Origin: a plasmid
Assembly: GCF_056746865.1 (NCBI RefSeq)
Contig: NZ_JBWKMP010000004.1
Direction: 5' to 3' (one strand)
Length of the DNA stretch: 64,000 nt
This document shows, one piece after another, positions 39,345-55,560 of the stretch. Positions within the stretch are counted from its first letter, which is position 1; each line of letters starts with the position of its first letter. The notes under the pieces were generated by a model, which saw only the letters and a list, made by a program, of their open reading frames with translations, ran no database searches and was not told the origin of the DNA. The position numbers and the translations under genes were made by a program.

Positions 39345-39535
39345 TTATAAAACTCCTTATGGTGTTTTTTTGGTGTGTGTTTGGGTATGTTTTGGGTTTT
39401 AAGTGGGTTTGTTTGTCAAGTTTACCCCATTTCAACCATCAATCAATGATTATTTGTCTTGTTTTGGTGTTTTATTGGGTTGGGTATGGGTTGTTTTTGG
39501 GTTTTGTTTGGCGGGTAACAAAAGATGTCGCCGGG
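39345..39535 (-). promoter_or_regulatory. parC: parC centromere/promoter region with short direct repeats
   Basis: GT-rich reiterated motifs (GTTTTGGGTTTT, GGGTTGGGTATGGGTTGTTTTTGGGTTTTG) immediately upstream of parM. Confidence 0.5.
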
Positions 39536-39860
39536 CTCCTCTTTTTACTGCGCCGGCTGACGCGGCGCGGCAGGAACGCTGCCTGTGGTCAGTGTCCCGC
39601 GTCCGGCCGGGCACGGGACGGGCGCTTTTACCGCTCCCGGCTGGCGTTGGTGACAGTGTACGCCAGCCCGTCGCCCTTTTCTGATGAACGCCCTTCAAGC
39701 CGCTTTCGCGGCATATCCTCGCCGTCAAAAAGACGACGGCTGCGGTATTCCACGGTCGGCCTGACCCGTTACCGGACGCGGTGAACAGCCCACAGGCAGC
39801 GGGGAACGGGCACCACAGGGGTGCCCTCCCGGTGCCCTCTGTAAGAGAAGGAGTGCTGTT

Positions 39861-40544
39861 ATGTCCCGTTTTATCCTGGGTGACTGCGTGCGTGTTATGG
39901 CCACGTTTCCGGGCAATGCTGTCGATTTCATCCTCACCGACCCGCCGTATCTCGTCGGTTTCCGTGACCGTTCCGGGCGCACCATCGCCGGCGATAAAAC
40001 CGATGAATGGCTGCAACCAGCCTGTAATGAAATGTACCGCGTACTCAAAAAAGACGCGTTAATGGTGAGCTTCTATGGCTGGAACCGCGTCGATCGCTTT
40101 ATGGCCGCCTGGAAAAATGCGGGATTCAGCGTTGTTGGTCACCTGGTCTTCACCAAAAACTACACATCGAAGGCCGCATATGTGGGCTATCGCCACGAAT
40201 GTGCCTACATCCTGGCAAAAGGCCGTCCACGTCTGCCACAAAACCCGCTGCCGGACGTGCTGGGCTGGAAATATTCGGGCAATCGCCATCACCCGACGGA
40301 AAAGCCCGTTACCAGCCTGCAACCGCTGATTGAGAGCTTCACACACCCGAACGCAATTGTGCTGGACCCGTTTGCAGGCAGCGGCTCAACCTGCGTCGCC
40401 GCCCTCCAGTCCGGACGCCGGTATATCGGTATCGAGCTGCTTGAGCAGTATCACCGTGCCGGGCAGCAACGCCTTGCCGCCGTGCAACGGGCCATGCAGC
40501 AGGGGGCCGCGAATGATGACTGGTTTATGCCGGAGGCTGCGTAA
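39861..40544 (+). CDS. orphan DNA N6-adenine/N4-cytosine methyltransferase (leading region)
   Basis: 227-aa ORF with DPPY motif (FILTDPPYLVGF) and AdoMet-binding motif (DPFAGSGSTCVAA). Confidence 0.8.
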   Translation: MSRFILGDCVRVMATFPGNAVDFILTDPPYLVGFRDRSGRTIAGDKTDEWLQPACNEMYRVLKKDALMVSFYGWNRVDRFMAAWKNAGFSVVGHLVFTKNYTSKAAYVGYRHECAYILAKGRPRLPQNPLPDVLGWKYSGNRHHPTEKPVTSLQPLIESFTHPNAIVLDPFAGSGSTCVAALQSGRRYIGIELLEQYHRAGQQRLAAVQRAMQQGAANDDWFMPEAA

Positions 40545-40766
40545 ATGAACTATGCAGGACACGAAAAACTGCGCGCCGAAGTGGCGGAGGTGGCCAATGC
40601 CATGTGCGACCTGCGTACAACCATGAATGAGATGGAGCAGCGGTACAGCTTTAATGCCGACACCCTGCCGGAACGTCTGGTGCGTCAGACGCTGTTTCGC
40701 GCAAACCGCCTCCTGATGGAGGCATATACCGAAATTCTGGAACTGGAAGCGTGCTTTAAAGATTGA
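40545..40766 (+). CDS. hypothetical protein (73 aa)
   Basis: ORF start overlaps stop of upstream methyltransferase gene. Confidence 0.45.
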   Translation: MNYAGHEKLRAEVAEVANAMCDLRTTMNEMEQRYSFNADTLPERLVRQTLFRANRLLMEAYTEILELEACFKD

Positions 40767-40779
40767 GAAGGAGACGAGA

Positions 40780-41214
40780 ATGTACGGAACATGCGAAACG
40801 CTATGCCGGGAGCTGGCAGTAAAGTATCCGGGAGACATGCCGCTGATGCTGGTTATCTGGTCCCCGGAAGAGATTCAGGCACTGGCTGACGGTATGGAAA
40901 TTTCTCTGACCGGTCATGAAATCAGGACCGTCCTGGCACGCCTGGAGGACATCCCGGAAGACCAGCGGATTGAGTCCGGTATTTCTTCCGCTGCGGTGAT
41001 GGAGATTATCCGCAACGAGAGCGAAAACCGCCTGGTGACCGTCCCTGCTGAACTGCTGGCGTCCCTGATTCAGACCGCTGAACAGGCATTGTGGAAACGT
41101 GAATGGGCCGCCCGGGATCATGGCCTCGCCGTCCCGGAATGCGTCACCCGCCGTCAGGAGGTGGTTAATCAGGCCCGCACCCTGCTGAAAAACAACACAC
41201 ACGAAAACGACTGA
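40780..41214 (+). CDS. hypothetical leading-region protein (144 aa)
   Basis: ORF with GAGAAGGAGA RBS-like sequence upstream. Confidence 0.5.
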
Positions 41215-41264
41215 TGTTATCGCCGCCTGCCCTGCGGGCGGCGATACAGGGAGAACGCTTAATC

Positions 41265-42041
41265 ATGAACGAAAACAGCACGCTGAACGCACTGATTTGT
41301 CGTCACGCCCGCAACCTGCTGCTGGCGCAGGGCTGGCCGGAAGAGACGGATGTTGACCAGCGTAACCCGAAGTATCCGGGCTGGATCAGCATTTATGTTC
41401 TGCTGGATGCGCCCCGGCTGGCGACGTTACTTATCAACCGTCACGGCGGCGTACTGCCGCCGCTCCTGGCCTCCGCCATTCAGAAACTGACCGGAACCGG
41501 GGCGGAACTGGTACTGTCCGGCAGTCAGTGGCAGTCGCTGCCGGTACTTCCGGCAGACGGAACGCAGGTGTCTTTCCCGTATGCCGGAGAATGGCTGACC
41601 GAAGACGAAATCAGGGCTGTACTTGCGGCGGTGCGCGATGCGGTACGCAGTGTCAGTTGCCGGGTGGCAGAAGATGCGCGGCGTATCCGGGCGGCGCTGA
41701 CCACCACCGGTCAGACGTTGCTGACTCGCCAGACGCGCCGCTTTCGTCTGGTTGTGAAGGAAAGCGATCACCCCTGCTGGCTCGATGAAGATGACGAAAA
41801 CCTGCCCGTGGTGCTCGATGCCATCGTGAACCGGGGAGCACGTTTTTCGTCGGTGGAAATGTACCTGGTCAGCGATTGTATTGAGCATATCCTGTCCAGT
41901 GGGCTGGCCTGCGATGTGCTGCGTATACCGGATGAACCGCCCCGCCGCTGGTTTGACCGTGGTGTTCTGCGGGAGGTGGTCCGGGAAGCCCGGGCCGAAA
42001 TCCGCAGCATGGCGGATGCCCTGGCAAAAATCCGGAAATGA
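41265..42041 (+). CDS. hypothetical leading-region protein (258 aa)
   Basis: ATG at 41265 preceded by GGGAGA; within track ORF 41214-42041. Confidence 0.5.
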
Positions 42042-42458
42042 TGACGTTGGCGGGGTAAATCCCCGCCTTTTTCCTGCCGGTCCCCGGACAGAGCACAAAG
42101 GAAGTCGCCGCCGGCTCCGCTTTACCCGGCCATGCGGGGCATGGCCTTGTGGGTTTTCAGTTATGTGGCCTCAGCGTCGTGTGCGGGCTGTGCCGTGCCT
42201 CCATCGTAGCCGGGCTGGCAGGGATGCAAGGGTACGCTTCGCCGCTGCGGTCACCCGGTCCCTCCTTCCCGTCTGCCGTGATTTTCCGGTCGTTCACCCG
42301 CTCAGATTTCGCGGTCTCACCCTCCAACTCCCGCCAGCCGTGTGCGTCAGGCTGCGGCTTCCCTTGCGCCCTGTGCATCCCCGCCTTATCGCCCGGCTTT
42401 TATGGAGGCACGGCACCGCCCGGTGTCGCGGAATATGTGAACAACGGAGGAAAACATC

Positions 42459-42884
42459 ATGCAATATGCGAAACCTGTCACTCTGAACGTTGAAGAGTGC
42501 GACCGTCTCTCCTTTCTACCGTATCTGTTTGGCAACGATTTTCTGTATGCCGAGGCGTATGTGTACGCGCTGGCGCAAAAAATGATGCCGGAATATCAGG
42601 GAGGCTTCTGGCACTTCATCCGCCTGCCGGACGGTGGCGGTTACATGATGCCGGATGGCGACCGTTTCCACATGGTGAACGGTGCAAACTGGTTTGACCG
42701 TACCGTGAGTGCTGATGCCGCAGGCATCATTCTGACTTCCCTTGTGATTAACCGCCAGTTGTGGCTGTACCACGACAGCGGGGATGCAGGACTGACCCAG
42801 CTTTACCGGATGCGCGATGCGCAGTTGTGGCGTCACATCGAATTTCACCCCGAATGCAACGCGATTTACGCGGCACTGGACTGA
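42459..42884 (+). CDS. ArdB/KlcA-family antirestriction protein
   Basis: 141-aa [40 protein letters not shown]... size and sequence consistent with KlcA/ArdB family. Confidence 0.7.
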
Positions 42885-42930
42885 TTAACGGACGGGGCGG
42901 CAATGCCGCCCCTGTAAAGGAGACGAGAAC

Positions 42931-43353
42931 ATGTACTGTACTGTTAAAGAAATTATCCGCGAAGTGCTGAACACAGACGTGCCGGACAGTGAATGCGTTT
43001 TTGCCGTGGTGCTGACCCGTGGGGATGTGCGTCACATAGCCCAGGACTGGAGTCTGACAGACGATGAGCTGGAAACCGTCATGCAGCGACTGGACGATGC
43101 CTTTGCGCATGGTGCGGATGTCAGCATTGTTCACGACGTTGTTCGTGAGCTGATGGAAGAAAAGCGCGCCAGCCGTCAGGTGACAGTTCCGGCGGTGATG
43201 CTGGAAAAAGTGATGGCGCTGGCAGGCAGTGAAATGAAGCGCCTGTATGCCGTCGGGAGCGAGAACGGGGGCGACGGTGACGCATTCGTCAGGGAAGAAC
43301 GCGAAGCAATGGACGTTGTGTTACAGGCGCTGGACGGGGAGCACATGTCATGA
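42931..43353 (+). CDS. hypothetical leading-region protein (140 aa)
   Basis: ORF with AAAGGAGA RBS upstream. Confidence 0.5.
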   Translation: MYCTVKEIIREVLNTDVPDSECVFAVVLTRGDVRHIAQDWSLTDDELETVMQRLDDAFAHGADVSIVHDVVRELMEEKRASRQVTVPAVMLEKVMALAGSEMKRLYAVGSENGGDGDAFVREEREAMDVVLQALDGEHMS

Positions 43354-43879
43354 ATATCAGCACAGAAACCCGCGAAATTCTGCGCAATTACAAAGCCGTG
43401 ATTAATGCGCGGCGTCGTGAAATGGGGCAGAAACCGCTCACCACTGCGCAGATTGTTGATGAAATCTGCGATTTTGTGGCGAATCAGCAGGCTGTATTCC
43501 TCGGCGGTCACTACATCCTTCAGGGCAGCATAAACAGGTGATACAGGGGCAGGCGGTGGAGGCCGCCTGTCAGCCCGCGCGAAAACCCCTGGCAGGCTGA
43601 CGCCTGCCGGAAGGGAAGCGGGCCACGCTGGCGCGTCGCCCGTTACCCTTCCCGTCTGTGATGTGTCTGACTCAGGAGTGTTTCTTTCTTATGTTATGGA
43701 ACTGTTCCTGATGTTGTTGTTCCTTTATCTACTGCTCTGATTCTGACTACTGCAGTGTTGTTCTGTCTGCCGGGCGCACCTTCGGCTCCCGGCTGCCTGG
43801 CGGCATCCGGTCGTCAGGCCCGACTCCGACAGGCAGCTGCTGGCGCACCTGCCAGTCTCCGCCGAACCCGCTGGCGCGG

Positions 43880-44345
43880 TTTCGGGCTGCCGCTACGGTC
43901 CGATGCGTGAAAACCCCTGGCTTGCAGCGACCGTTCCGGTCGCGCCGCCTCTGTCGCGCCGTGGCCTGCGCTCCCGGCATCCCGGCAAAAGGCCGCCGGG
44001 ATGTAAGGGGCAACGCCGTTTCGCGCACGCGCTCTCCGTCGTTGCGGCGGGCCCCTGCTCATTGCCTGCCGGGTGCCACACACCCGTATGAGTCCCTGTC
44101 GCCGGGGGCATAGACAGCCACAACCTGCCGCACTGACTGTCCAGGGTAAATGAACAGCCCACAAAATTTTTTACCCAAAAACCGGTAAAAAATTTTGCGT
44201 TCTGCCCAGGACAGGTGCGTCAGGCCGTGGCAGTGATGCCCCTTGCGGCGAAGGTTCTCAAACGGGTGAAGTTCATACCACAGGGAATACAGCAGCAGGT
44301 TCCCGCGAAACGTCAAAACCGCGGCTCCCGAAACTCAACGGGTGA
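43880..44345 (+). repeat. Frpo/ssi-like leading-region repeat, copy 1 (diverged)
   Basis: ~85-90% identical to copies at 47090-47650 and 52565-53140; GC-rich stem-forming segment followed by conserved promoter-like core. Confidence 0.6.
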
Positions 44346-44578
44346 TGTTCTTTAAAAATCAGGATTTATTTCAGGCTCCGGCAATACGCATTTATTTGTT
44401 CTGTCAGTCATCCGGCTGGCAGGTAATGAGAACGCAGGAACAGAAGGAGGAAAACACCGGAGAACGTCAGACGCAGATATGAAAAAAGCAGGCCGGGGAG
44501 GACCTGCTTAATCCACACCGCAAAAACTGTTCGAGCAGTTTCTGCGGTTCCATTCAACAGTCATAAGGAGTTTCATTT

Positions 44579-44809
44579 ATGACGGTAAGTATTGTTTCAC
44601 CTTCCGCAGCGGCTGTAAAGCCCCGCCGTCATCCCCGTTTCAGACGCGAAGACATCCCCGCGCCGGAAATTGACCCCGTGCTGAAAGCCTTCGGGCGACA
44701 CATTGCCCGGAGTTTTCACCGGGGACGTGGTGTACACATCCCCGCCATGAAAAATACGGCTTTCGGGCAGGTGCTCCGCACACTCGAACTGAAACGCGCT
44801 TTTAACTGA
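44579..44809 (+). CDS. hypothetical protein (76 aa)
   Basis: ORF downstream of repeat copy 1. Confidence 0.4.
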   Translation: MTVSIVSPSAAAVKPRRHPRFRREDIPAPEIDPVLKAFGRHIARSFHRGRGVHIPAMKNTAFGQVLRTLELKRAFN

Positions 44810-44860
44810 TGAGGTGAGCCGCCCCGCGAGGGGCGGCAACAGACGGAAGGAGAACATTTT

Positions 44861-46222
44861 ATGACATTAGCTGCAATCACCATGACCGCCCCGGAAGCCG
44901 CCAGCCCTGTGCAGATGTACCGCGCGACCTACTCACCGGATGACAACAAACTGCGCCTGTATGCCGCGTCACGTCTTGACCCGGAGACGTATAAAAAAGT
45001 GCATGATGCCGGTTTCCGCTGGGCACCCAGACAGGCGCTGTTTGTCGCGCCAGCCTGGACACCGGGCCGGGAAGACGTGCTCCTCTCACTTGCCGGAGAG
45101 ATTGAGGATGAAGACAGCACGCTCGCTGAACGTCAGGAAGCACGGGCGGAGCGGTTTACCGGATACAGCGGAAAGCGGGCCAGTGAATCCGCACAGGCAC
45201 TTGATGAAGTGGAAAGACTGGCCGCGATGATCCCGCCCGGTCAGCCCATTCTTGTGGGGCATCACAGCGAACGCCGCGCCCGTCGTGATGCGCAGCGTAT
45301 TGAAAACGGCATGAAACGTGCCGTGATGCTCTTTGAACGTGCGGAATACTGGGAAGAACGGGCGCGGTCGGCACTGCTTCACGCGAAGTATAAAGAACGC
45401 CCGGACGTTCGCTGGCGTCGTATCAAAAAAATCGAAGCTGATTTGCGCAAGGCTGAAAAGACCATCGCACAGTCGCAGAAATATCTGACGATGTGGCGGG
45501 CTGAATCGCTGGATCTGAATATGGCAAAACTCATCAGCAGTCATGACCATATCAGCGCCTGTTTCCCGCTGGATACGTATCCGCGCCCGGCAGAAAAAAG
45601 CCAGTATGAAGGGAGCCGGTCGTTATGGTCGGCCCTGGATGATGACATCATCACCACGGAGCAGGCCCGCGAAATTGCGATCCGCTGTCATGAACGGCAG
45701 ATTCAGCATCAGCAACGCTGGGTTAACCACTATCAGAACCGCCTGATCTATGAGCGTGCCATGCTGGACGAAAGCGGCGGCGTGGTTACCCGGACACAGG
45801 ATTTTGAGCCGGGCGGACAGGTTTTCAGCCGGGGCGAGTGGCTGACTATCATCCGCGTGAACAAAAGCAACGGGGCGGTGAGTTCAGTCACAACGCCAAA
45901 TTACAGTTTTCTCGGGTACAGCGGCACGATGAAAGTGACGCCCGATCGCATCACGGACTACAAAGCACCATCGGCAGAAGAGGCTGCCGTCGCCAGTCAG
46001 GCCGCGAAGCGTCCGCCGGTAGTCAACTATCCGGGGGAAGGTTTCCGGGAAATGACAAAGGCGCAGTGGGCCGCCCTGCCCCGGGACTGTAAGGCCGTGC
46101 GCAGTGTGGAAGAAGCAGAAGACCACGGGGCATACCGCTACCGCCGCACAATGGACAATAATTTCCGTCTGGTGAATGTGTATATCACCGACATGAAAAT
46201 CACGGAAATCCCACAGAAATAA
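44861..46222 (+). CDS. hypothetical leading-region protein (453 aa)
   Basis: long ORF with AGGAGA RBS; charged and coiled-coil-like central region. Confidence 0.6.
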   Translation: MTLAAITMTAPEAASPVQMYRATYSPDDNKLRLYAASRLDPETYKKVHDAGFRWAPRQALFVAPAWTPGREDVLLSLAGEIEDEDSTLAERQEARAERFTGYSGKRASESAQALDEVERLAAMIPPGQPILVGHHSERRARRDAQRIENGMKRAVMLFERAEYWEERARSALLHAKYKERPDVRWRRIKKIEADLRKAEKTIAQSQKYLTMWRAESLDLNMAKLISSHDHISACFPLDTYPRPAEKSQYEGSRSLWSALDDDIITTEQAREIAIRCHERQIQHQQRWVNHYQNRLIYERAMLDESGGVVTRTQDFEPGGQVFSRGEWLTIIRVNKSNGAVSSVTTPNYSFLGYSGTMKVTPDRITDYKAPSAEEAAVASQAAKRPPVVNYPGEGFREMTKAQWAALPRDCKAVRSVEEAEDHGAYRYRRTMDNNFRLVNVYITDMKITEIPQK

Positions 46223-46268
46223 GGTATATCCCCCCGGGAAATCCCCGGGGGATGACGGAGATAATGAT

Positions 46269-46832
46269 ATGCACAGTCAGTTAAGAGAACGTATCCGGCT
46301 GATGCGCGCAAGGCTGGATAACGCCGCGCCGGTTGCTGAAATCCGGGCTGAATCTCAGCTTTTTGTGAGTCCTGCCCCGATCTGTGATCGCCTGGTGACG
46401 CTGGCGGAAATCAGCAACCGTGATCACATTCTGGAACCCTCTGCCGGCACCGGGGCCATACTGCGGGCGATTCGGGATACCGCGCCGGAGGCCATGTGTG
46501 ATGCGGTGGAGATTAACAGCGGGCTGGTCCGGTATCTGCGGGAAAATTTTAACGGTGTCAGGGTACAGTGTGGCGACTTCATGGAATGGCAGCCGGTGCA
46601 GTATTACAGCCGGATCATTATGAATCCGCCGTTCAGTCACGGGCAGGATATCCGGCATATCCTGCGGGCTTTTTCCCTGTTGCGTCCGGGGGGCGTTCTG
46701 GTTGCCGTCTGTCTCAACGGGCCACGCCAGCAGGAGAAGCTGTTACCGTTTTCTGACGTCCGCGAGGAGCTGCCGCGCGGCACGTTTGCTTATACCGATG
46801 TCCCGACGATGATTATTCGTTTGCGTGCCTGA
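46269..46832 (+). CDS. class I SAM-dependent methyltransferase (putative DNA MTase)
   Basis: AdoMet motif ILEPSAGTGAI and NPPF motif (IIMNPPFSHG). Confidence 0.6.
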   Translation: MHSQLRERIRLMRARLDNAAPVAEIRAESQLFVSPAPICDRLVTLAEISNRDHILEPSAGTGAILRAIRDTAPEAMCDAVEINSGLVRYLRENFNGVRVQCGDFMEWQPVQYYSRIIMNPPFSHGQDIRHILRAFSLLRPGGVLVAVCLNGPRQQEKLLPFSDVREELPRGTFAYTDVPTMIIRLRA

Positions 46833-47011
46833 TGACACAGGGCTGGCGGGAGGATAAATGCCCGTCTGTCCGCGCCGGGAAAAAACCGCGCGCCGGTGGC
46901 GCTGAAAGGGGCCGCGCTCACGCGCCGCCCCTTTCATTACGCGGACGTTCTGATGGGGGCTTCTGTCTTTTCAGACCTGTCATTTGTCTGTTACTGATGA
47001 TGTTGTTGTTC

Positions 47012-47071
47012 CTGCTACTGCTACTGCTACTGCTACTGCTACTGCTACTGCTACTGCTACTGCTACTGCTA
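47012..47071. repeat. perfect tandem hexanucleotide repeat (CTGCTA)x10
   Basis: read directly; followed by one imperfect unit CTGTTC. Confidence 0.95.
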
Positions 47072-47089
47072 CTGTTCTTCTTTTTTCTA

Positions 47090-47650
47090 CTGCCCTGATT
47101 ATTGTCTGTTTTGTTGTTCTCCTGCTTATGCCTTTTCCGGGCGTCCCCCTGGCGGGGCGGGCTGTCGTGAACGGAGCCAGCGAAGCTGTCTCCGCCCTGG
47201 CGGGCTTCCATCCCTGACGCAAAAACCCGGGTTTGCAGCGACCGGAACGGTCGCGCCACCCTTGTCGCGCCGTGGCCTGCGCTCCCGGCATCCCGGCAAA
47301 AGACGCCGGGATGTAAGGAGCAACGCCGTTTCGCAAACCGCGCTTCACGTCGTTGCGGCGGGTCCCTGCCCGTTGTTCTGTCCGGTGCCATTCACCTGTT
47401 TAAGCCCCTGTCGCCGGGGGCATAGACAGCCACAACCTGCCGCACTGACTGTCCAGGGTAAATGAACAGCCCACAAAATTTTTTACCCAAAACCCGGTAA
47501 AAAATTTTGCGTTCTGCCCAGGACAGGTGCGTCAGGCCGTGGCAGTGATGCCCCTTGCGGCGAAGGTTCTCAAACAGGTGATGGTGAATACCGGAGGGAA
47601 CAAAAGGCAGGTCCCCGCAAAACGTCAAAACCGCGGCTCCCGAAACTCAA
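47090..47650 (+). repeat. Frpo/ssi-like leading-region repeat, copy 2 (upstream of ssb)
   Basis: near-identical to copy 3 over ~560 bp. Confidence 0.7.
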
Positions 47651-47692
47651 CAGATGATGGGGGCTGAAAACATCAACAGAAGGAGACACATC

Positions 47693-48220
47693 ATGGCAGT
47701 TCGTGGCATTAACAAGGTCATTCTTGTCGGTCGTCTGGGAAAAGATCCGGAAGTCCGTTACATCCCCAACGGGGGCGCAGTGGCAAACCTGCAGGTGGCC
47801 ACGTCAGAAACCTGGCGCGACAAACAGACGGGGGAAATGAAGGAGCAGACGGAATGGCACCGCGTGGTGCTGTTCGGCAAGCTCGCGGAAGTGGCAGGTG
47901 AATATCTGCGTAAGGGGGCGCAGGTCTACATTGAAGGCCAGCTTCGCACCCGTAGCTGGGAAGATAACGGTATTACCCGTTACGTCACCGAAATCCTTGT
48001 TAAAACCACGGGCACCATGCAGATGCTGGGGAGTGCACCACAGCAGAACGCTCAGGTGCAACCGCAGCCTCAGCAGAATGGTCAGTCACAGAGTGCTGAC
48101 GCGACGAAAAAAGGGAGCGCGAAAACGAAAGGCCGTGGACGTAAGGCTGCGCAGCCGGAGCCTCAGCCGCAACCACCGGAGGGGGAGGATTACGGGTTTT
48201 CAGACGATATCCCGTTCTGA
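47693..48220 (+). CDS. ssb: plasmid single-stranded DNA-binding protein
   Basis: [48 protein letters not shown]... ; C-terminal acidic tail DDIPF. Confidence 0.9.
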
Positions 48221-48571: not shown

Positions 48572-50595
48572 ATGTCAGTAACAAAGTCTGAACCAAAATC
48601 TACCCGTAAAGCAAGCCGTAAACCTGCAAAAACGCAGGAAACTGTCCTGTCTGCCCTGCTGGCGCAGACGGAGGAAGTGAGCGTGCCGCTGGCCTCGCTG
48701 ATTAAGTCACCACTGAATGTGCGCACGGTGCCGTATTCTGCGGAGTCCGTCAGCGAACTGGCTGATTCCATTAAGGGGGTCGGCCTGCTGCAGAATCTGG
48801 TTGTTCATGCCCTGCCAGGTGACCGCCACGGTGTCGCCGCAGGTGGTCGCCGACTGGCAGCACTCAACATGCTGGCAGAGCGTGGCATCATTCCGGCTGA
48901 CTGGCCTGTCCGCGTGAAAATTATTTCGCAGGAACTGGCGACGGCCGCATCGATGACCGAGAACGGTCATCGTCGGGATATGCACCCAGCCGAACAGATT
49001 GCCGGATTCTGTGCAATGGCGCAGGAAGGCAAAACACCTGCACAAATCGGTGATTTGCTGGGCTATTCACCCCGCCACGTTCAGCGAATGCTGAAACTGG
49101 CTGACCTTGCGCCTGTCATCCTCGATGCGCTGGCAGAAGACCTCATCACCACCGAGCACTGTCAGGCGCTGGCGCTGGAGAACGACACCGCGCGTCAGGT
49201 GCAGGTGTTTGAAGCCGCCTGTCAGTCGGGATGGGGCGGTAAACCGGAAGTACAGACCATTCGTCGTCTGGTGACCGAAAGTGAAGTGGCGGTGGCAGGG
49301 AACAGTAAATTCCGCTTCGTGGGGGCTGATGCCTTCTCGCCAGATGAACTGCGCACTGACCTGTTCAGCGACGACGAGGGTGGCTATGTGGACTGCGTGG
49401 CGCTCGATGCCGCCCTGCTGGAAAAACTCCAGGCTGTTGCTGAACACCTTCGGGAAGCCGAAGGCTGGGGATGGTGCGCCGGACGCATGGAGCCTGTCGG
49501 TGAGTGCCGTGAGGATGCCGGAACATACCGCTGTCTGCCGGAGCCGGAAGCGGTGCTGACGGAGGCGGAAGAAGAACGTCTGAACGAACTGATGACGCGT
49601 TACGACGCGCTGGAAAACCAGTGTGAGGAATCTGACCTGCTGGAAGCAGAAATGAAGCTGATGCGCTGCATGGCGAAGGTCAGGGCGTGGACGCCGGAGA
49701 TGCGTGCCGGAAGCGGTGTGGTGGTGTCCTGGCGTTATGGCAACGTGTGTGTCCAGCGTGGTGTGCAGTTGCGCAGCGAGGATGATGCGGCTGACGACGC
49801 TGACCGCACGGAACAGGTGCAGGAGAAAGCGCCCGTGGAGGAAATCAGTCTGCCACTGCTGACGAAAATGTCTTCCGAACGCACGCTGGCAGTCCAGGCA
49901 GCACTGATGCAGCAACCGGACAAATCTCTGGCACTGCTGGCATGGACGCTCTGCCCTGATGAATCCCCTAATGATTTTTACCAAAATCATTAGGGGATTC
50001 ATCAGCGCTCTGCCTGAATGTGTTTGGCAGCGGAGCGTACAGTAAACCAGCACAAATCAGCCTGGAATGTAAACATTATTCGCTGACCAGCGATGCGCCA
50101 TCGGGGAAGGACGGTGCCGCATTCCTGGCGCTGATGGCAGAAAAAGCCCGTCTTGCAGCCCTGTTACCGGAGGGATGGTCACGGGATATGACGACATTCC
50201 TGTCACTCAGCCAGGAGGTACTGTTATCCCTGCTCAGTTTCTGCACCGCGTGCAGCATCCACGGCGTTCAGACCCGCGAGCATGGTCACACGTCACGCAG
50301 TCCGCTGGACTCGCTGGAGAGCGCTATCGGATTCCACATGCGCGACTGGTGGCAGCCGACGAAAGCAAACTTCTTCGGACACCTGCAAAAGCCGCAGATT
50401 ATCGATGCCCTGAATGATGCCGGACTGTCCGGTGCTGCGCGGGACGCGGAGAAAATGAAGAAAGGCGATGCCGCTGAACATGCAGAGTTCCACATGAAAG
50501 ACAACCGCTGGGTGCCTGGCTGGATGTGTACACCACGTCCACAGGCAGAGACGGAAACCACGGAGTACCGTGACGACCAGGCAGAAGCCGCCTGA
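48572..50595 (+). pseudogene. ParB-like nuclease domain protein, interrupted at 49947-50014 by a 50-bp Tn10 remnant plus 9-bp duplication
   Basis: two adjacent track ORFs (48572-49993, 50020-50595) in different frames; removing 59 bp restores a ~655-aa frame. Confidence 0.75.
49956..50005. mobile_element. 50-bp IS10/Tn10 nearly-precise-excision remnant
   Basis: CTGATGAATCCCCTAATGATTTT-TACC-AAAATCATTAGGGGATTCATCAG (two IS10 outside-end 23-mers inverted); flanked by 9-bp direct repeat CGCTCTGCC. Confidence 0.8.
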
Positions 50596-50663
50596 CCGCC
50601 AGTCATAAACCATTTATCACGCCGCCCTGCCGGAGACGGGGCGGCAGCAAGGGAGATACCGTG

Positions 50664-51098
50664 ATGAAAACTGAACTGACCCTGAATGTATTACAGACCA
50701 TGAGCGCACAGGAATATGAAGATATCCGGGCTGCCGGAAGTGATGAACGTCGTGAACTCACACATGCCGTGATGCGGGAGCTGGATGCGCCGGATAACTG
50801 GACGATGAACGGCGAGTATGGCAGCGAGTTCGGCGGCTTTTTCCCCGTCCAGGTCCGTTTCACGCCTGCCCACGAACGTTTTCACCTGGCGTTATGTTCA
50901 CCGGGCGATGTCTCTCAGGTCTGGGTGCTGGTTCTGGTGAATGCCGGTGGTGAGCCGTTTGCGGTGGTTCAGGTACAGCGGCGGTTTGCACCGGAAGCCG
51001 TCAGCCATTCACTGGCACTGGCGGCGTCACTGGACGCGCAGGGGTACAGCGTCAGTGACATCATCCATATCCTGATGGCGGAAGGAGGTCAGGCATGA
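50664..51098 (+). CDS. psiB: plasmid SOS inhibition protein PsiB
   Basis: [41 protein letters not shown]... Confidence 0.9.
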
Positions 51099-51814
51099 GC
51101 GCACGTTCACAGGCACTGGTTCCCCTCAGCGCAGAGCAACAGGCCGCATGGCGGGCGGTGGCGGAGACAGAAAAACGCCGCCACCAGGGAAACACGCTGG
51201 CGGAATATCCGTATGCGGGGGCGTTTTTCCGCTGTCTGAACGGAAGCCGCAGGATATCGCTGTCTGACCTGCGATTTTTCATGCCGTCCCTGACCGCAGA
51301 AGAACTGCGCGGCAACCGTTCTCAGTGGCTGTATGCCGTCGATGTGCTGATTGAAACTCAGGGCGAGGTCTGCCTTCTTCCCCTTCCCGGCGATGCAGCA
51401 GAGCGGCTGTTCCCGTCGGTGCGGTTCCGTGTCAGGGAGCGCAGTCGCCACAAATCCGCACTGGTCATGCAAAAGTACAGCCGCCAGCAGGCGAGGGAGG
51501 CAGAGCAGAAAGCCCGTGCGTACCAGGCGCTGGTCGCTCAGGCTGAAATCGAACTGGCATTCCATTCGCCGGAAACAGTCGGAAGCTGGCATGCACGCTG
51601 GAGTGACCGGGTGGCAGAGCATGACCTGGAAACCCTGTTCTGGCAGTGGGGTGAGCGTTTTCCGTCACTGGCCGGAATGGAACGCTGGCAGTGGCAGGAT
51701 ATGCCGTTCTGGCAGGTTATTGCGGAAGCCAGTCTTGCAGCAAGAGAGGCCGGTCACGCTGTCCGTGAGATGGAGCGGTGGATGGTGCCGAACAAACTCC
51801 GGGAGGCGGCGTGA
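51095..51814 (+). CDS. psiA: PsiA
   Basis: 239-aa ORF overlapping psiB stop. Confidence 0.85.
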
Positions 51815-52035
51815 TGCGGCAACAATCACACAGATTACCCGTAAACAGCCTGAATGAGCGGGTTATTTTCAGGAAAAGTGAGTGTGGTCAGCGTGCAGGT
51901 ATATGGGCTATGATGTGCCCGGCGCTTGAGGCTTTCTGCCTCATGACGTGAAGGTGGTTTGTTACCGTGTTGTGTGGCAGAAAGAAGATAGCCCCGTAGT
52001 AAGTTAATTTTCATTAACCACCACGAGGCATCCCT

Positions 52036-52248
52036 ATGTCTAGTCCACATCAGGATAGCCTCTTACCGCGCTTTGCGCAAGGAGAAGAAGGCCATGAAAC
52101 TACCACGAAGTTCCCTTGTCTGGTGTGTGTTGATCGTGTGTCTCACACTGTTGATATTCACTTATCTGACACGAAAATCGCTGTGCGAGATTCGTTACAG
52201 AGACGGACACAGGGAGGTGGCGGCTTTCATGGCTTACGAATCCGGTAA
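52036..52248 (+). CDS. mok: Mok-like reading frame overlapping hok (translational coupling element)
   Basis: 70-aa frame overlapping the hok ORF in another frame, as in hok/sok-type loci. Confidence 0.45.
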
Positions 52249-52252: not shown

Positions 52253-52564
52253 CAACCTGGAGGCGGGCGCAGGCCCGCCTTTTCAGGGCTGATGCTGGTC
52301 TGACTGCACTGAAGCGCCTTTATAAAGGGGCTGCTGGTTCGCCGGTGGCCCCTTTCTCCTTGCTGGCATTGTACGGGCATGAACAACCAGACTGCCAGGA
52401 AGGCCGTTTCCCTCCGGGAACGGGGATGAACGTGCGCCTGCGGCGCCCGTTCTTTTCCCCCGCCTTCTCTGTTTATGACTTACCAGAAATCACATCACCT
52501 TCCCTTTGATTATTCTCTTTTTCCTCCTGCTCTGACTCTGATTACTGCTCTGACTCTGATTACT

Positions 52565-53140
52565 GCTGCCCTGATTATTGTCTGTTTTGTTGTTCTCCTG
52601 CTTATGCCTTTTCCGGGCGTCCCCCTGGCGGGGCGGGCTGTCGTGAACGGAGCCAGCGAAGCTGTCTCCGCCCTGGCGGGCTTCCATCCCTGACGCAAAA
52701 ACCCGGGTTTGCAGCGACCGGAACGGTCGCGCCACCCTTGTCGCGCCGTGGCCTGCGCTCCCGGCATCCCGGCAAAAGACGCCGGGATGTAAGGAGCAAC
52801 GCCGTTTCGCAAACCGCGCTTCACGTCGTTGCGGCGGGTCCCTGCCCGTTGTTCTGTCCGGTGCCATTCACCTGTTTAAGCCCCTGTCGCCGGGGGCATA
52901 GACAGCCACAACCTGCCGCACTGACTGTCCAGGGTAAATGAACAGCCCACAAAATTTTTTACCCAAAACCCGGTAAAAAATTTTGCGTTCTGCCCAGGAC
53001 AGGTGCGTCAGGCCGTGGCAGTGATGCCCCTTGCGGCGAAGGTTCTCAAACAGGTGATGGTGAATACCGGAGGGAACAAAAGGCAGGTCCCCGCAAAACG
53101 TCAAAACCGCGGCTCCCGAAACTCAACAGATGATGGGGGC
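52565..53140 (+). repeat. Frpo/ssi-like leading-region repeat, copy 3
   Basis: near-identical to 47090-47650. Confidence 0.7.
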
Positions 53141-53166
53141 TGAAAACATCAGATACAGGAGGAATT

Positions 53167-53463
53167 ATGAGCGCATTTTCTTTTAACACCACTTATCAGC
53201 CAACAGGCGATCAGCAGAAAGACGCAATCGCACAAATCGGGATCATGCAGAATCGTGCTGTTCAGGCAAATCTTGCATATCAGAGCTGCCGGGATTCTGG
53301 TGCACTCTTTAAGGTGCTCCACCAGGTCAATAATGAGCTGCATGACTTACTGGATAGCCTGGAGAATCATACTCCTCTTGTCAGAAAAAACGCTGATGAG
53401 TTGATCGCGCTGTTACTGCTTTTCACTCGGCAGGTTGGTCAGTCCCGAACTGACCTGATTTGA
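53167..53463 (+). CDS. hypothetical protein (98 aa)
   Basis: ORF with AGGAGGA RBS 7 nt upstream. Confidence 0.55.
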   Translation: MSAFSFNTTYQPTGDQQKDAIAQIGIMQNRAVQANLAYQSCRDSGALFKVLHQVNNELHDLLDSLENHTPLVRKNADELIALLLLFTRQVGQSRTDLI

Positions 53464-53573: not shown

Positions 53574-54395
53574 ATGCGATTAGCTTCCCGTTTTGGTCGA
53601 TATAATTCTATTCGCCGTGAGCGCCCGTTAACGGATGACGAATTAATGCAGTTTGTTCCATCTGTCTTTTCTGGTGATAAACATGAATCCCGGAGTGAGC
53701 GTTATACATATATCCCAACCATCAATATCATCAATAAGTTACGTGATGAAGGTTTCCAGCCATTCTTTGCCTGTCAGAGTCGGGTTCGTGATTTGGGACG
53801 CCGCGAATACAGTAAACATATGTTACGTCTTCGCAGGGAAGGGCATATTAACGGGAAAGAAGTTCCTGAAATTATCCTGCTTAATTCACATGATGGTTCA
53901 TCCAGTTATCAGATGATCCCAGGAATTTTTCGTTTTGTCTGCACAAATGGCCTGGTGTGTGGGAATAATTTTGGCGAAATCCGCGTTCCACATAAAGGTG
54001 ATATTGTCGGGCAGGTTATTGAGGGAGCGTATGAAGTGCTCGGTGTCTTTGATAAAGTCACTGAAAATATGGAGACAATGAAAGAGATACATCTTAACAG
54101 TGACGAACAACATTTATTTGGCAGAGCTGCATTGATGGCCAGGTACGAAGATGAAAATAAAACGCCAGTGACGCCAGAACAAATAATTACTCCCCGCCGT
54201 TGGGAGGATAAACAGAACGATCTCTGGACAACCTGGCAGCGGGTTCAGGAGAATATGATAAAAGGTGGATTATCGGGGCGAAGTGCCTCCGGTAAAAATA
54301 CCAGAACAAGAGCCATTACAGGCATTGACGGTGATATCCGAATCAACAAAGCATTATGGATGATTGCCGAACAGTTCAGGGAGTGGAAGTCATGA
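53574..54395 (+). CDS. hypothetical leading-region protein (273 aa)
   Basis: ORF with AGGAG RBS; conserved neighbour of oriT in F-like plasmids from memory. Confidence 0.6.
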   Translation: MRLASRFGRYNSIRRERPLTDDELMQFVPSVFSGDKHESRSERYTYIPTINIINKLRDEGFQPFFACQSRVRDLGRREYSKHMLRLRREGHINGKEVPEIILLNSHDGSSSYQMIPGIFRFVCTNGLVCGNNFGEIRVPHKGDIVGQVIEGAYEVLGVFDKVTENMETMKEIHLNSDEQHLFGRAALMARYEDENKTPVTPEQIITPRRWEDKQNDLWTTWQRVQENMIKGGLSGRSASGKNTRTRAITGIDGDIRINKALWMIAEQFREWKS

Positions 54396-55239: not shown

Positions 55240-55560
55240 CCCACTCCACAAAAAGGCTCAACAGGTTGGTGGTTCTCACCACCAAAAGCACCACACCCCA
55301 CGCAAAAACAAGTTTTTGCTGATTTGCTTTTTGAATCATTAGCTTATGTTTTAAATAATGTATTTTAATTTATTTTACATTATTAAATAGGGGCGTTGAC
55401 GACCCTATGGCGACCCTATGGCGACCCTTGTTAGGGTCAGTACTGACAAATTTTATGAAAAACATTTGGATATATTAGGGCCGCCCCTAGCAGCGCCGTG
55501 CGTTTTTTTATAGTATGCCCCTAGGGGCGCTGCTAGGGGTGCTCTTCTTTTTTCAGACCA
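55240..55560. promoter_or_regulatory. oriT: oriT region (nic region and TraM/TraY binding repeats)
   Basis: GGTGTGGTGCTTTTGGTGGTGAGAACCACCAACC-like nic region on reverse complement near 55255-55300; direct repeats GACCCTATGGC x2 and palindrome CCCCTAGCAGCGC...GCGCTGCTAGGGG at 55400-55540; upstream of traM. Confidence 0.65.

Follow-up and report, generated by a model that had tools for sequence, protein, structure and literature searches.

The region from approximately 39.5 to 55.3 kb of the window, i.e., the 64,000-nucleotide stretch of plasmid DNA that was analysed, is very probably the canonical leading region of an IncFII-type F-like conjugative plasmid, and the block at 39861-48220 its oriT-distal half; this degree of confidence applies jointly to the whole explanation given here. 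The block is the standard early-entry gene set of F-like resistance plasmids, comprising DNA methylases, a restriction inhibitor, and a single-stranded DNA-binding protein (SSB), and has already been described. It appears to comprise four transcription units, and in front of each lies a long imperfect hairpin of the transferred strand that is a putative single-stranded DNA (ssDNA) promoter. What is new is that a DUF3560 protein of the third unit, judging from alignments of its homologues, looks like a detached N-terminal part or a partner of the adjacent NPPF methylase.

Leading-region placement and transferred strand

The F nic sequence GTGGGGTGTGGTGCTTT has an exact minus-strand match at 55285-55301, with the nick on that strand at approximately 55292, and all genes of the block are co-oriented on the plus strand; thus, the transferred minus strand is the template for every named gene. 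The placement in a leading region that a sequence-only reading had proposed is thereby borne out. Gene order agrees with that of F and of the IncI1 plasmid pESBL, and many IncF plasmids carry the block with 100% identity, the matching plasmid records numbering at least 5000. The proposal that these genes enter the recipient first holds only loosely: they are still within the leading region, but the block sits 7-15.4 kb from the nick, and psiA, psiB, hok/sok, and DUF932 enter ahead of it. The block is an ordinary one, because it is common in complete Escherichia coli genomes (present in over half of them) and already described. Leading-region anti-defence is a published concept, such genes being statistically enriched in leading regions, where their position matters experimentally (PMC11541004), and position, orientation, and gene identities support the fit of the block to this role.

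Transcription units and putative ssDNA promoters

Unit 1 would be driven by the class 3 hairpin at 39540-39860 on the minus strand (arms 39577-39606 and 39772-39801; inverted repeat I3), which has a minus-strand DNA fold of -95 kcal/mol (z -6.25) and is 97-98% identical to the regions upstream of pESBL M.EcoGIX and the F methylase. The first gene downstream (39861-40544, plus strand) encodes an M.EcoGIX orthologue, a β-class N6-adenine DNA methyltransferase (PF01555 N6_N4_Mtase, E 1.6e-40; NF010253, E 2e-150), which is 92% identical to pESBL M.EcoGIX over 227 aa, carries the DPPY motif at aa 27-30 (39939-39950), and has CcrM, DpnA, and RsrI as relatives in the PDB. It is followed on the same strand by a 73-aa ORF (40545-40766), a YcgB-like DUF1380 protein of 144 aa (40780-41214; PF07128, E 2.1e-49), and a 258-aa YchA-like hypothetical protein (41265-42041; 275 aa from an alternative start at 41214), and the operon is closed by a terminator-like stem-loop with a T run (42049-42067, plus strand). 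The 73-aa ORF, which occupies the same position in F and pESBL, matches phrog_4830 (E 1e-33), itself without assigned function, and gave no match in Pfam or NCBIfam; a PDB sequence search gave no relative of the DUF1380 protein. The YchA-like ORF belongs to a narrow family (413 proteins, the top matches all >85% identical) and matches phrog_8919 (E 2e-141), also without assigned function, with no match in Pfam, NCBIfam, or PDB.

Unit 2 would start from the class 2 hairpin at 42120-42458 on the minus strand (arms 42184-42215 and 42391-42422; inverted repeat I1; minus-strand fold -87.8 kcal/mol, z -4.87), which shares 98% identity with the sequences upstream of klcA in pESBL and F. Its klcA gene (42459-42884, plus strand) encodes a KlcA/ArdB-family anti-restriction protein that scores 92.8 bits against PF03230 Antirestrict (cutoff 25) and matches the structures of KlcA (2KMG, E 1.8e-18) and ArdB (2WJ9, E 3e-7). 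For KlcA homologues, activity is reported in vivo only. Two further plus-strand genes follow: a divergent DUF1380 paralogue of 140 aa (42931-43353), which shares 29% identity with 40780-41214 (E 2e-7) and reaches 19.5 bits against PF07128, under the gathering score, and a 63-aa ORF (43350-43541) annotated in pT156A, F, and pESBL, with no family match in Pfam, NCBIfam, or PHROG.

Units 3 and 4 lie behind Frpo-like (class 1) ssDNA-promoter hairpins on the minus strand. Copy a (43910-44347; minus-strand fold -130.6 kcal/mol, z -10.1) is an approximately 89% direct repeat of copy b (47221-47659; -144.4 kcal/mol, z -12.6), which is nearly identical to the ssb-upstream element of the F plasmid; a third Frpo copy, 100% identical to copy b, is found at 52686-53146. 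Copy a would serve a 76-aa basic ORF (44579-44809, plus strand), the DUF3560 gene, and the NPPF methylase gene. The 76-aa ORF is annotated as hypothetical, its one Pfam match being HU-like and sub-threshold (E 7e-4), and its ribosome-binding site and start codon are covered by the antisense small RNA AS-pc01 (44483-44584, minus strand; Rfam RF02875, 89.7 bits against a gathering score of 79), consistent with a minus-strand σ70-like promoter at 44619-44591 and a terminator at 44509-44486. A (CTGCTA)x10.5 hexanucleotide tandem repeat (47012-47074; TRF score 126, 100% matches) lies within the spacer before copy b, which would serve ssb (47693-48220, plus strand; PF00436, E 1.1e-37), DUF905, an interrupted ParB-like pseudogene, psiB (50661-51098, plus strand), and psiA (51095-51814, plus strand). 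Although the ssb ORF opens at 47654, its annotated start, which has a Shine-Dalgarno sequence, is at 47693.

For all five hairpins, the transferred strand folds better than its complement, by 2.7-11.2 kcal/mol, and a scan of 9 kb of the plus strand yielded no σ70 consensus promoter. The sequence-only reading did not include this regulatory layout of four operons, each preceded by its own long transferred-strand hairpin. The identities assigned there to the DPPY and NPPF methyltransferases, the ArdB/KlcA-family protein, and ssb are upheld by the family matches and motifs. Its three ranges of interleaved ORFs contain real genes but lump them together: 40545-42041 covers three (the 73-aa, DUF1380, and YchA-like ORFs), 42931-43541 two (the DUF1380 paralogue and the 63-aa ORF), and 44579-46222 two (the 76-aa and DUF3560 ORFs). 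psiB and psiA are likewise real, although they lie 2.4-3.6 kb past 48220, outside the block to which they had been assigned.

In the recipient, the hairpins would act as ssDNA promoters, giving a burst of expression until complementary-strand synthesis removes them. During this period, the M.EcoGIX-like enzyme would methylate the single strand as it enters, with low sequence specificity, and so blunt restriction, KlcA/ArdB would block Type I restriction, SSB would coat the strand, and PsiB would restrain RecA and the SOS response. The promoter action is suggested by experiments on near-identical F and pESBL elements: ssDNA activity of the homologous hairpins has been published, the start site of the pESBL element upstream of M.EcoGIX was mapped by 5′RACE, and homologous systems restrict expression to the ssDNA entry window (PMC12672017); hairpin activity from ssDNA is also credited to Masai & Arai 1997 and Couturier 2023, as cited in PMC12672017. 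M.EcoGIX itself is reported to methylate ssDNA and to aid entry into a restricting recipient (PMC7736820).

A rather unlikely alternative is that the interleaved ORFs and methylases serve mainly establishment or housekeeping (e.g., complementary-strand priming, replication timing, partition, or gene regulation) and that the term anti-defence island over-reads a set of co-located early genes. SSB, the ParB-like gene, and DUF905 have no demonstrated anti-defence role in this plasmid, the DUF1380, YchA-like, and small ORFs have no family or structural match pointing to a function, the ParB-like gene is dispensable, being a pseudogene in this plasmid lineage, and F and pESBL manage without the DUF3560/methylase module. 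Against this stand the enrichment of anti-defence genes in leading regions and the experimental effect of position there, the confinement of homologous expression to the entry window, and the published anti-restriction phenotypes of M.EcoGIX (PMC7736820) and of KlcA/ArdB relatives (2KMG and 2WJ9 families).

The DUF3560 protein and the NPPF methylase

Among the interleaved ORFs, which the sequence-only reading had put forward as candidate anti-defence proteins, only DUF3560 gained a concrete link, as the probable partner of the NPPF methylase. The YdbA-like DUF3560 protein (44861-46222, plus strand; 453 aa; PF12083, E 5e-37) has an AF2 model with pLDDT 93.4, for which structure searches found no solved structural relative. 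The methylase (46269-46832, plus strand) is a 187-aa class I SAM amino-methyltransferase catalytic domain (PF05175, 30.5 bits) with its NPPF motif at aa 119-122 (46623-46634). By homologue alignment, the two ORFs correspond to the halves of a single protein of approximately 670 aa: a C-terminal homologue of 46269-46832 is present in 94 of the 100 distant DUF3560 homologues of at least 560 aa, and the family consensus contains the motifs QLFPTP, EPSAGTG, and NPPF. An independent split occurs in a phage-like contig, in which the stop and start codons overlap and a Lar-like gene adjoins. The two proteins would work together as a single enzyme, the split counterpart of a fused protein that is widespread, and the nucleic-acid-binding or scaffold part missing from the catalytic core would come from DUF3560. 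The 3.3-kb module of Frpo copy a, the 76-aa ORF, DUF3560, and the methylase is flanked by Frpo repeats.

It is distinctly unlikely that the two proteins are independent and their fusion elsewhere incidental domain shuffling of the kind typical of polyvalent proteins. Such proteins of mobile elements do join unrelated effector domains, one DUF3560 homologue carries LPD29, and some DUF3560 genes have no methylase neighbour (L012); furthermore, the model of the artificially concatenated halves reached a pTM of only 0.64, so that no fixed docking is evident. However, wherever the fusion occurs among the long cluster representatives (94 of 100, at about 45-50% identity), DUF3560 comes first and the methylase second, the linker between them is of conserved length, adjacency is retained after splitting in both the window and L011, and the methylase has no DNA-binding part of its own. 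A methylase that modifies RNA or protein (rRNA, tRNA, or a host factor) together with DUF3560, and hence has no anti-restriction function, is somewhat less improbable but still unlikely. Its top NCBIfam matches are the rRNA/protein methylases Erm, KsgA, and PrmC, all far under their cutoffs; its Foldseek neighbours include ErmE, Dim1, MnmM, and other small-molecule/RNA methylases at E-values like those of DNA methylases; and it has neither a recognisable target-recognition domain nor an N6_Mtase Pfam match above the gathering score. NPPF-type motifs are also present in non-DNA amino-methylases. By contrast, its best PDB sequence match is the catalytic domain of M.TaqI (E 9e-6), its top Foldseek matches are Type I HsdM, PacII M, and M.TaqI, and QLFPTP precedes EPSAGTG and NPPF as in γ-class DNA adenine methylases; its PHROG relatives are annotated DNA methyltransferases inside giant polyvalent proteins, and the phage-borne split homologue adjoins a Lar restriction-alleviation gene.

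Comparison with known systems

Fused DUF3560-methyltransferase proteins (approximately 650-700 aa) align through their N-terminal ~440 residues with the whole DUF3560 ORF and through their C-terminal ~160 residues with the methylase, and, as with methylase-bearing polyvalent proteins, they occur in early or accessory regions of mobile elements (phages, ICEs, and plasmids); no characterised member was found in the literature searched. The window differs in having separate genes in different frames, 46 nt apart with stops in all frames between, the second with its own Shine-Dalgarno ribosome-binding site. DpnA of the DpnII system is a β-class N6-adenine methylase to which the DPPY enzyme is related (PDB 5HEK/5HFJ, E ~4e-12). 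It is active on ssDNA and methylates the incoming single strand before this becomes a restriction target. M.EcoGIX embodies the same concept, methylation of incoming ssDNA ahead of restriction (PMC7736820), although DpnA is GATC-specific and part of a restriction-modification cassette, whereas the plasmid enzyme stands alone as an orphan and reportedly has almost no specificity.

IncI1 pESBL (NC_018659) has its M.EcoGIX and klcA operons organized as in the window, with upstream hairpins 97-98% identical and start sites mapped experimentally (PMC12672017), and its KlcA has the same protein accession as that of pT156A, a 100% match to the window; it differs in its conjugation system (IncI1, NikB relaxase), in carrying ardA, and in the absence of the DUF3560/NPPF methylase module. 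The F leading region (NC_002483, approximately 54-66.5 kb) has the same order, i.e., methylase, 73-aa ORF, DUF1380, 258-aa ORF, klcA-like gene, DUF1380, 63-aa ORF, Frpo, ssb, DUF905, ParB-like gene, psiB, (psiA), hok/sok, DUF932, SLT gene, and oriT, with an identical nic, a nearly identical ssb-upstream Frpo, and class 2 and class 3 hairpins 97-98% identical. F differs in that it is without the 3.3-kb module, its ParB-like gene is intact (652 aa) whereas the window copy is interrupted, and it is flanked by sopAB/RepFIA, whereas the window is flanked by parMR.

Position and boundaries of the block

The exact F nic sequence, GTGGGGTGTGGTGCTTT, occurs in the window on the minus strand (55285–55301), which identifies that strand as the one transferred (T-strand); traM and other tra-like ORFs lie downstream of nic, and the leading region occupies the lower coordinates. 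All annotated genes between 39861 and 54395 are co-oriented on the plus strand, with the T-strand as their template. The T-strand enters the recipient 5′-first, from ~55.29 kb toward lower coordinates, and the block of four operons at 39861–48220 lies 7–15.4 kb from the nick and makes up the nick-distal half of the leading region. The sequence-only reading had described these genes as entering first; the nic site and the strand do place them in the leading region, but DUF932, hok/sok, psiA, and psiB precede them into the recipient. The order ssb, psiB, psiA, hok/sok is conserved and identical to that of the F plasmid in accordance with Pfam and Rfam searches, in which ssb, ending at 48220 (PF00436, 128.7 bits), psiB at 50661–51098 (PF06290, 212 bits), and psiA at 51095–51814 (PF06952, 132.7 bits) all score above the gathering score and sok is matched at 51920–52096. 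The three genes assigned to the block under these names are thus real, but psiB and psiA are located outside its range. The calls for both methylases, the klcA-like gene, and ssb were borne out by a six-frame ORF listing and family searches.

GC content steps at ~39.5 kb from ~0.37–0.44 to ~0.55–0.65, at a boundary with parMR and parC-like iterons. T/G-rich direct repeats of ~11 bp, arranged in two clusters (39357–39511), are located between parM and the first hairpin of the block and look like the parC centromere iterons of a parMRC system. Many IncF plasmids carry the 8.9-kb block with 100% identity, and at least 5000 plasmid records match it; it is one of the commonest DNA segments in E. 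coli, and the content of the sequence-only reading is already published knowledge. Furthermore, a ParB-like leading-region gene (48572–50595), intact in F (652 aa), is split in the window by a ~50-bp perfect hairpin insert at ~49956–50005, CTGATGAATCCCCTAATGATTTT-TACC-AAAATCATTAGGGGATTCATCAG, with a 9-bp direct repeat, CGCTCTGCC, on either side. The arms CTGATGAATCCCCTAATGATTTT and AAAATCATTAGGGGATTCATCAG are outside ends of IS10/Tn10, and the insert looks like a remnant of Tn10 "nearly precise excision"; the gene is a pseudogene in this lineage.

Probable single-stranded promoters and transcription units

Each of the four intergenic gaps of the block contains a long imperfect inverted repeat, a regulatory layout of hairpins and operons that was absent from the sequence-only reading. 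Folding of the T-strand as ssDNA against shuffled controls yielded, in block order, z values of -6.25, -4.87, -10.1 (Frpo copy a), and -12.6 (Frpo copy b), and for each of the five elements of this kind in the window the T-strand is more stable than its complement, by 2.7–11.2 kcal/mol, the difference being 7.6–11.2 kcal/mol at the class 1 (Frpo/ssi) elements. The hairpin upstream of the DPPY methylase gene shares 97–98% identity with the class 3 ssDNA promoter of the IncI1 plasmid pESBL, and that upstream of klcA shares 98% identity with the class 2 element of pESBL and F. Frpo copy a (43910–44347) is 89% identical to copy b (47221–47659), which lies upstream of ssb in a stretch (47100–47700) that aligns almost identically with the Frpo region upstream of ssb in the F plasmid. 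A third copy, c (52686–53146, within a similar stretch at 52543–53163), is 98–100% identical to copy b and precedes a 98-aa ORF (53167–53463) and DUF932 (53574–54395). By 5′RACE and transconjugant RNA-seq, the pESBL elements were shown to act as transcription start sites, with induction of up to ~500-fold on ssDNA, and the promoter activity of Frpo/ssi is known only for the F and pESBL homologues (PMC12672017). A sigma-70 consensus scan returned no plus-strand promoter in 9 kb and no -35/-10 elements in the hairpin arms, and inspection by eye did not locate them either; a terminator is present 3′ of the first operon.

The T-strand is read 3′→5′, and each hairpin therefore enters the recipient after the genes that it drives. 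By analogy with the characterized homologues, the hairpins would recruit RNA polymerase in the recipient and give a transient burst of expression, which would end once complementary-strand synthesis removes them.

Several further features accompany these elements. The Frpo upstream of ssb in F looks like a mosaic of window copies a and b, and this resemblance suggests recombination or gene conversion among Frpo copies. A perfect hexanucleotide array, (CTGCTA)x10.5, lies at 47012–47074, just upstream of copy b, and related CTG/CTA-rich tracts are found just upstream of the other copies (43702–43743 and ~52540–52580). Between the window and near-identical plasmids the block differs by 6 bp, possibly because of a difference in repeat number. 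In the identical plasmid pT156A, two "hypothetical protein" CDSs, corresponding to 39491–39784 (plus strand) and 43814–44062 (minus strand), fall wholly within ssDNA-promoter hairpins; no family match supports them, and they were probably called as genes in error. Published chromosomal CRISPR spacers of K. pneumoniae (PMC6965323) match the Frpo copies at 44029–44060, 47340–47371, and 52816–52847 with 3–5 mismatches, and hok/sok at 51954–51985 with 2 mismatches. In the same study, DUF3560 and the SAM-methyltransferase gene are also reported as spacer targets, and host immunity thus targets the leading region represented in the window (PMC6965323).

Probable and candidate anti-defense genes

The first operon begins with an N6/N4 DNA methylase gene (39861–40544, plus strand; PF01555, E 1.6e-40, spanning the full length; NCBIfam NF010253, E 2e-150), the product of which is 92% identical to M.EcoGIX over 227/227 aa and has the beta-class motif order, with DPPY at aa 27–30 followed by the SAM-binding DPFAGSGST at aa 169–177. 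Family searches matched no nuclease family among its neighbors (the 73-aa ORF, DUF1380, the YchA-like ORF, and parM), and the methylase is an orphan, with no cognate restriction endonuclease nearby. M.EcoGIX methylates ssDNA with little sequence specificity and plays a part in entry when the recipient restricts (PMC7736820); by likeness, the DPPY enzyme would methylate the incoming single strand in the same relaxed manner. This operon occurs in 3780 of 5426 complete E. coli genomes. The KlcA/ArdB anti-restriction protein (42459–42884, plus strand) scores 92.8 bits for PF03230 Antirestrict against a gathering score of 25, and matches the solved structures of KlcA (2KMG, E 1.8e-18, aa 5–141) and ArdB (2WJ9, E 3e-7). 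As in characterized relatives, it would alleviate Type I restriction in the recipient, SSB would coat the incoming strand, and SOS induction would be kept in check by PsiB. The reading of the region as an F-like anti-defense leading region is supported and restates a picture already generalized by Samuel et al. (2024; PMC11541004).

Approximately half of the coding capacity of the block consists of two DUF1380 genes, the YchA-like ORF, DUF3560, and three small ORFs. The ranges 40545–42041, 42931–43541, and 44579–46222, previously taken as single ORFs, are indeed coding, but each comprises two or three separate genes. The sequence-only reading had proposed domain searches; a homologue search linked DUF3560 to the NPPF methylase, and family, PHROG, and PDB searches gave no sequence or structural lead for the 63-, 73-, and 76-aa ORFs, the two DUF1380 paralogues (29% mutual identity), or the YchA-like protein; for the YchA-like ORF and DUF1380, no PDB sequence match had an E below 0.6. 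The family of the 258-aa YchA-like protein is narrow and enterobacterial, and with the matches listed all >85% identical it lacks the depth that structure prediction needs. DUF905, DUF1380, and DUF3560 are among the prevalent leading-region families in the supplementary table of Samuel et al. (PMC11541004). By association it is reasonable to regard the unassigned ORFs as candidate anti-defense proteins.

DUF3560 and the NPPF methylase

The proposed split DUF3560–methylase enzyme is what is new in this analysis and the sole lead worth following. An exhaustive search with DUF3560 (44861–46222, 453 aa) retrieved 3891 cluster representatives, and most homologues at ~45–50% identity are 650–700 aa proteins in which the whole query is aligned and then followed by an extension. 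This extension is a homologue of the NPPF methylase of the window (E down to 1e-40) in 94 of the 100 representatives that are 560 aa or longer, and the fused-family consensus carries QLFPTP, EPSAGTG, and NPPF in the gamma-class amino-methylase order. The two parts are also split, independently, in a phage-like contig, where their stop and start codons overlap and a Lar-like restriction-alleviation gene lies alongside. Since the two parts are fused in 94 of 100 representatives and independently split elsewhere, the products of 44861–46222 and 46269–46832 very probably act as one enzyme. The two window genes are in different frames and separated by a 46-nt gap with stops in all frames, and the methylase gene has its own GGAG Shine-Dalgarno sequence. 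Programmed frameshifting or readthrough, which would join DUF3560 to the methylase in a single polypeptide, is ruled out by these stops in all three frames and the separate ribosome-binding site. A predicted model of an artificial concatenation of both halves reached pTM 0.64, obtained without an inter-domain error map.

One other DUF3560 locus retains just a methylase stump, and one lacks the methylase. On an IncP-like plasmid contig with ParA, ParB, and KorA nearby (L012), the gene following a stand-alone DUF3560 (L012:6386-7237) is not a methylase; its product has a PP-loop-like SYGAGVDS motif, resembles the PAPS-reductase family by eye, and may be an alternative DUF3560 partner. The fused family is found mainly in plasmid, ICE, or uncultured contexts, and among cultured phages a tblastn search with DUF3560 returned a single weak match.

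The small class I SAM methyltransferase (46269–46832, plus strand; NPPF at aa 119–122) shows QLFVSP, EPSAGTG, and NPPF in the gamma-class order X, I, IV, and its 187 aa comprise a Rossmann core only, without a target-recognition domain. Only the generic MTS family PF05175 passes, at 30.5 bits, with no PF02384 match, and the closest sequence is the catalytic domain of M.TaqI (phmmer, E 9e-6). Foldseek ranks Type I HsdM, PacII M, and M.TaqI at the top for the predicted model, and Erm-/Dim1-type RNA methylases score similarly; a DNA substrate is likely. The DUF3560 partner might serve as the target-recognition part. Its high-confidence model (pLDDT 93.4, pTM 0.80) starts with a small alpha/beta domain at the N-terminus, continues into long helical hairpins that carry invariant arginines, and ends in beta domains; structure and sequence searches revealed no resemblance to known recognition domains and no solved relative. 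The label "HD superfamily hydrolase", given to DUF3560 in the source annotations of Samuel et al. Supplementary Table 1, is unsupported by Pfam and fold searches.

The two genes, Frpo copy a, and the 76-aa ORF constitute a module between two direct Frpo repeats that are ~90% identical and spaced 3311 bp from each other. The first gene of the module, the 76-aa ORF, has its ribosome-binding site and ATG overlapped by an antisense RNA, AS-pc01 ("Antisense to pHK01_035"; 44483–44584, minus strand; Rfam 89.7 bits, gathering score 79), and this overlap suggests possible silencing of the module after establishment. The sole sigma-70-like promoter in 9 kb (44619–44591, minus strand) and a minus-strand terminator (44509–44486) both fit AS-pc01. 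The 76-aa ORF has no similarity to the small ORF ahead of a fused homologue.

The full proposal is a two-subunit enzyme, the split form of a widespread, uncharacterized fused methylase (~670 aa) that mobile elements carry; an ssDNA promoter would drive its expression as the plasmid enters, and DUF3560 would be a new kind of nucleic-acid-binding module directing an adenine methylase without a recognition domain to the incoming strand. It is advanced tentatively, as a possible but rather doubtful account. If true, IncF plasmids would gain a second, mechanistically distinct methylation shield. The pair is now testable as a single enzyme.

ESBL genes in E. coli are carried mainly by IncF plasmids, and the block is part of the survival of IncF resistance plasmids on entry into new hosts; pT156A, a near-identical relative of the window, carries blaCTX-M-55. 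The concept and most parts are published, and the finding alone adds little. Gene order in the block is the same as in the F plasmid, and for three of the four operons as in the IncI1 plasmid pESBL, whereas the module is absent from both F and pESBL. Of 5426 complete E. coli genomes, about half (2891) have the module.
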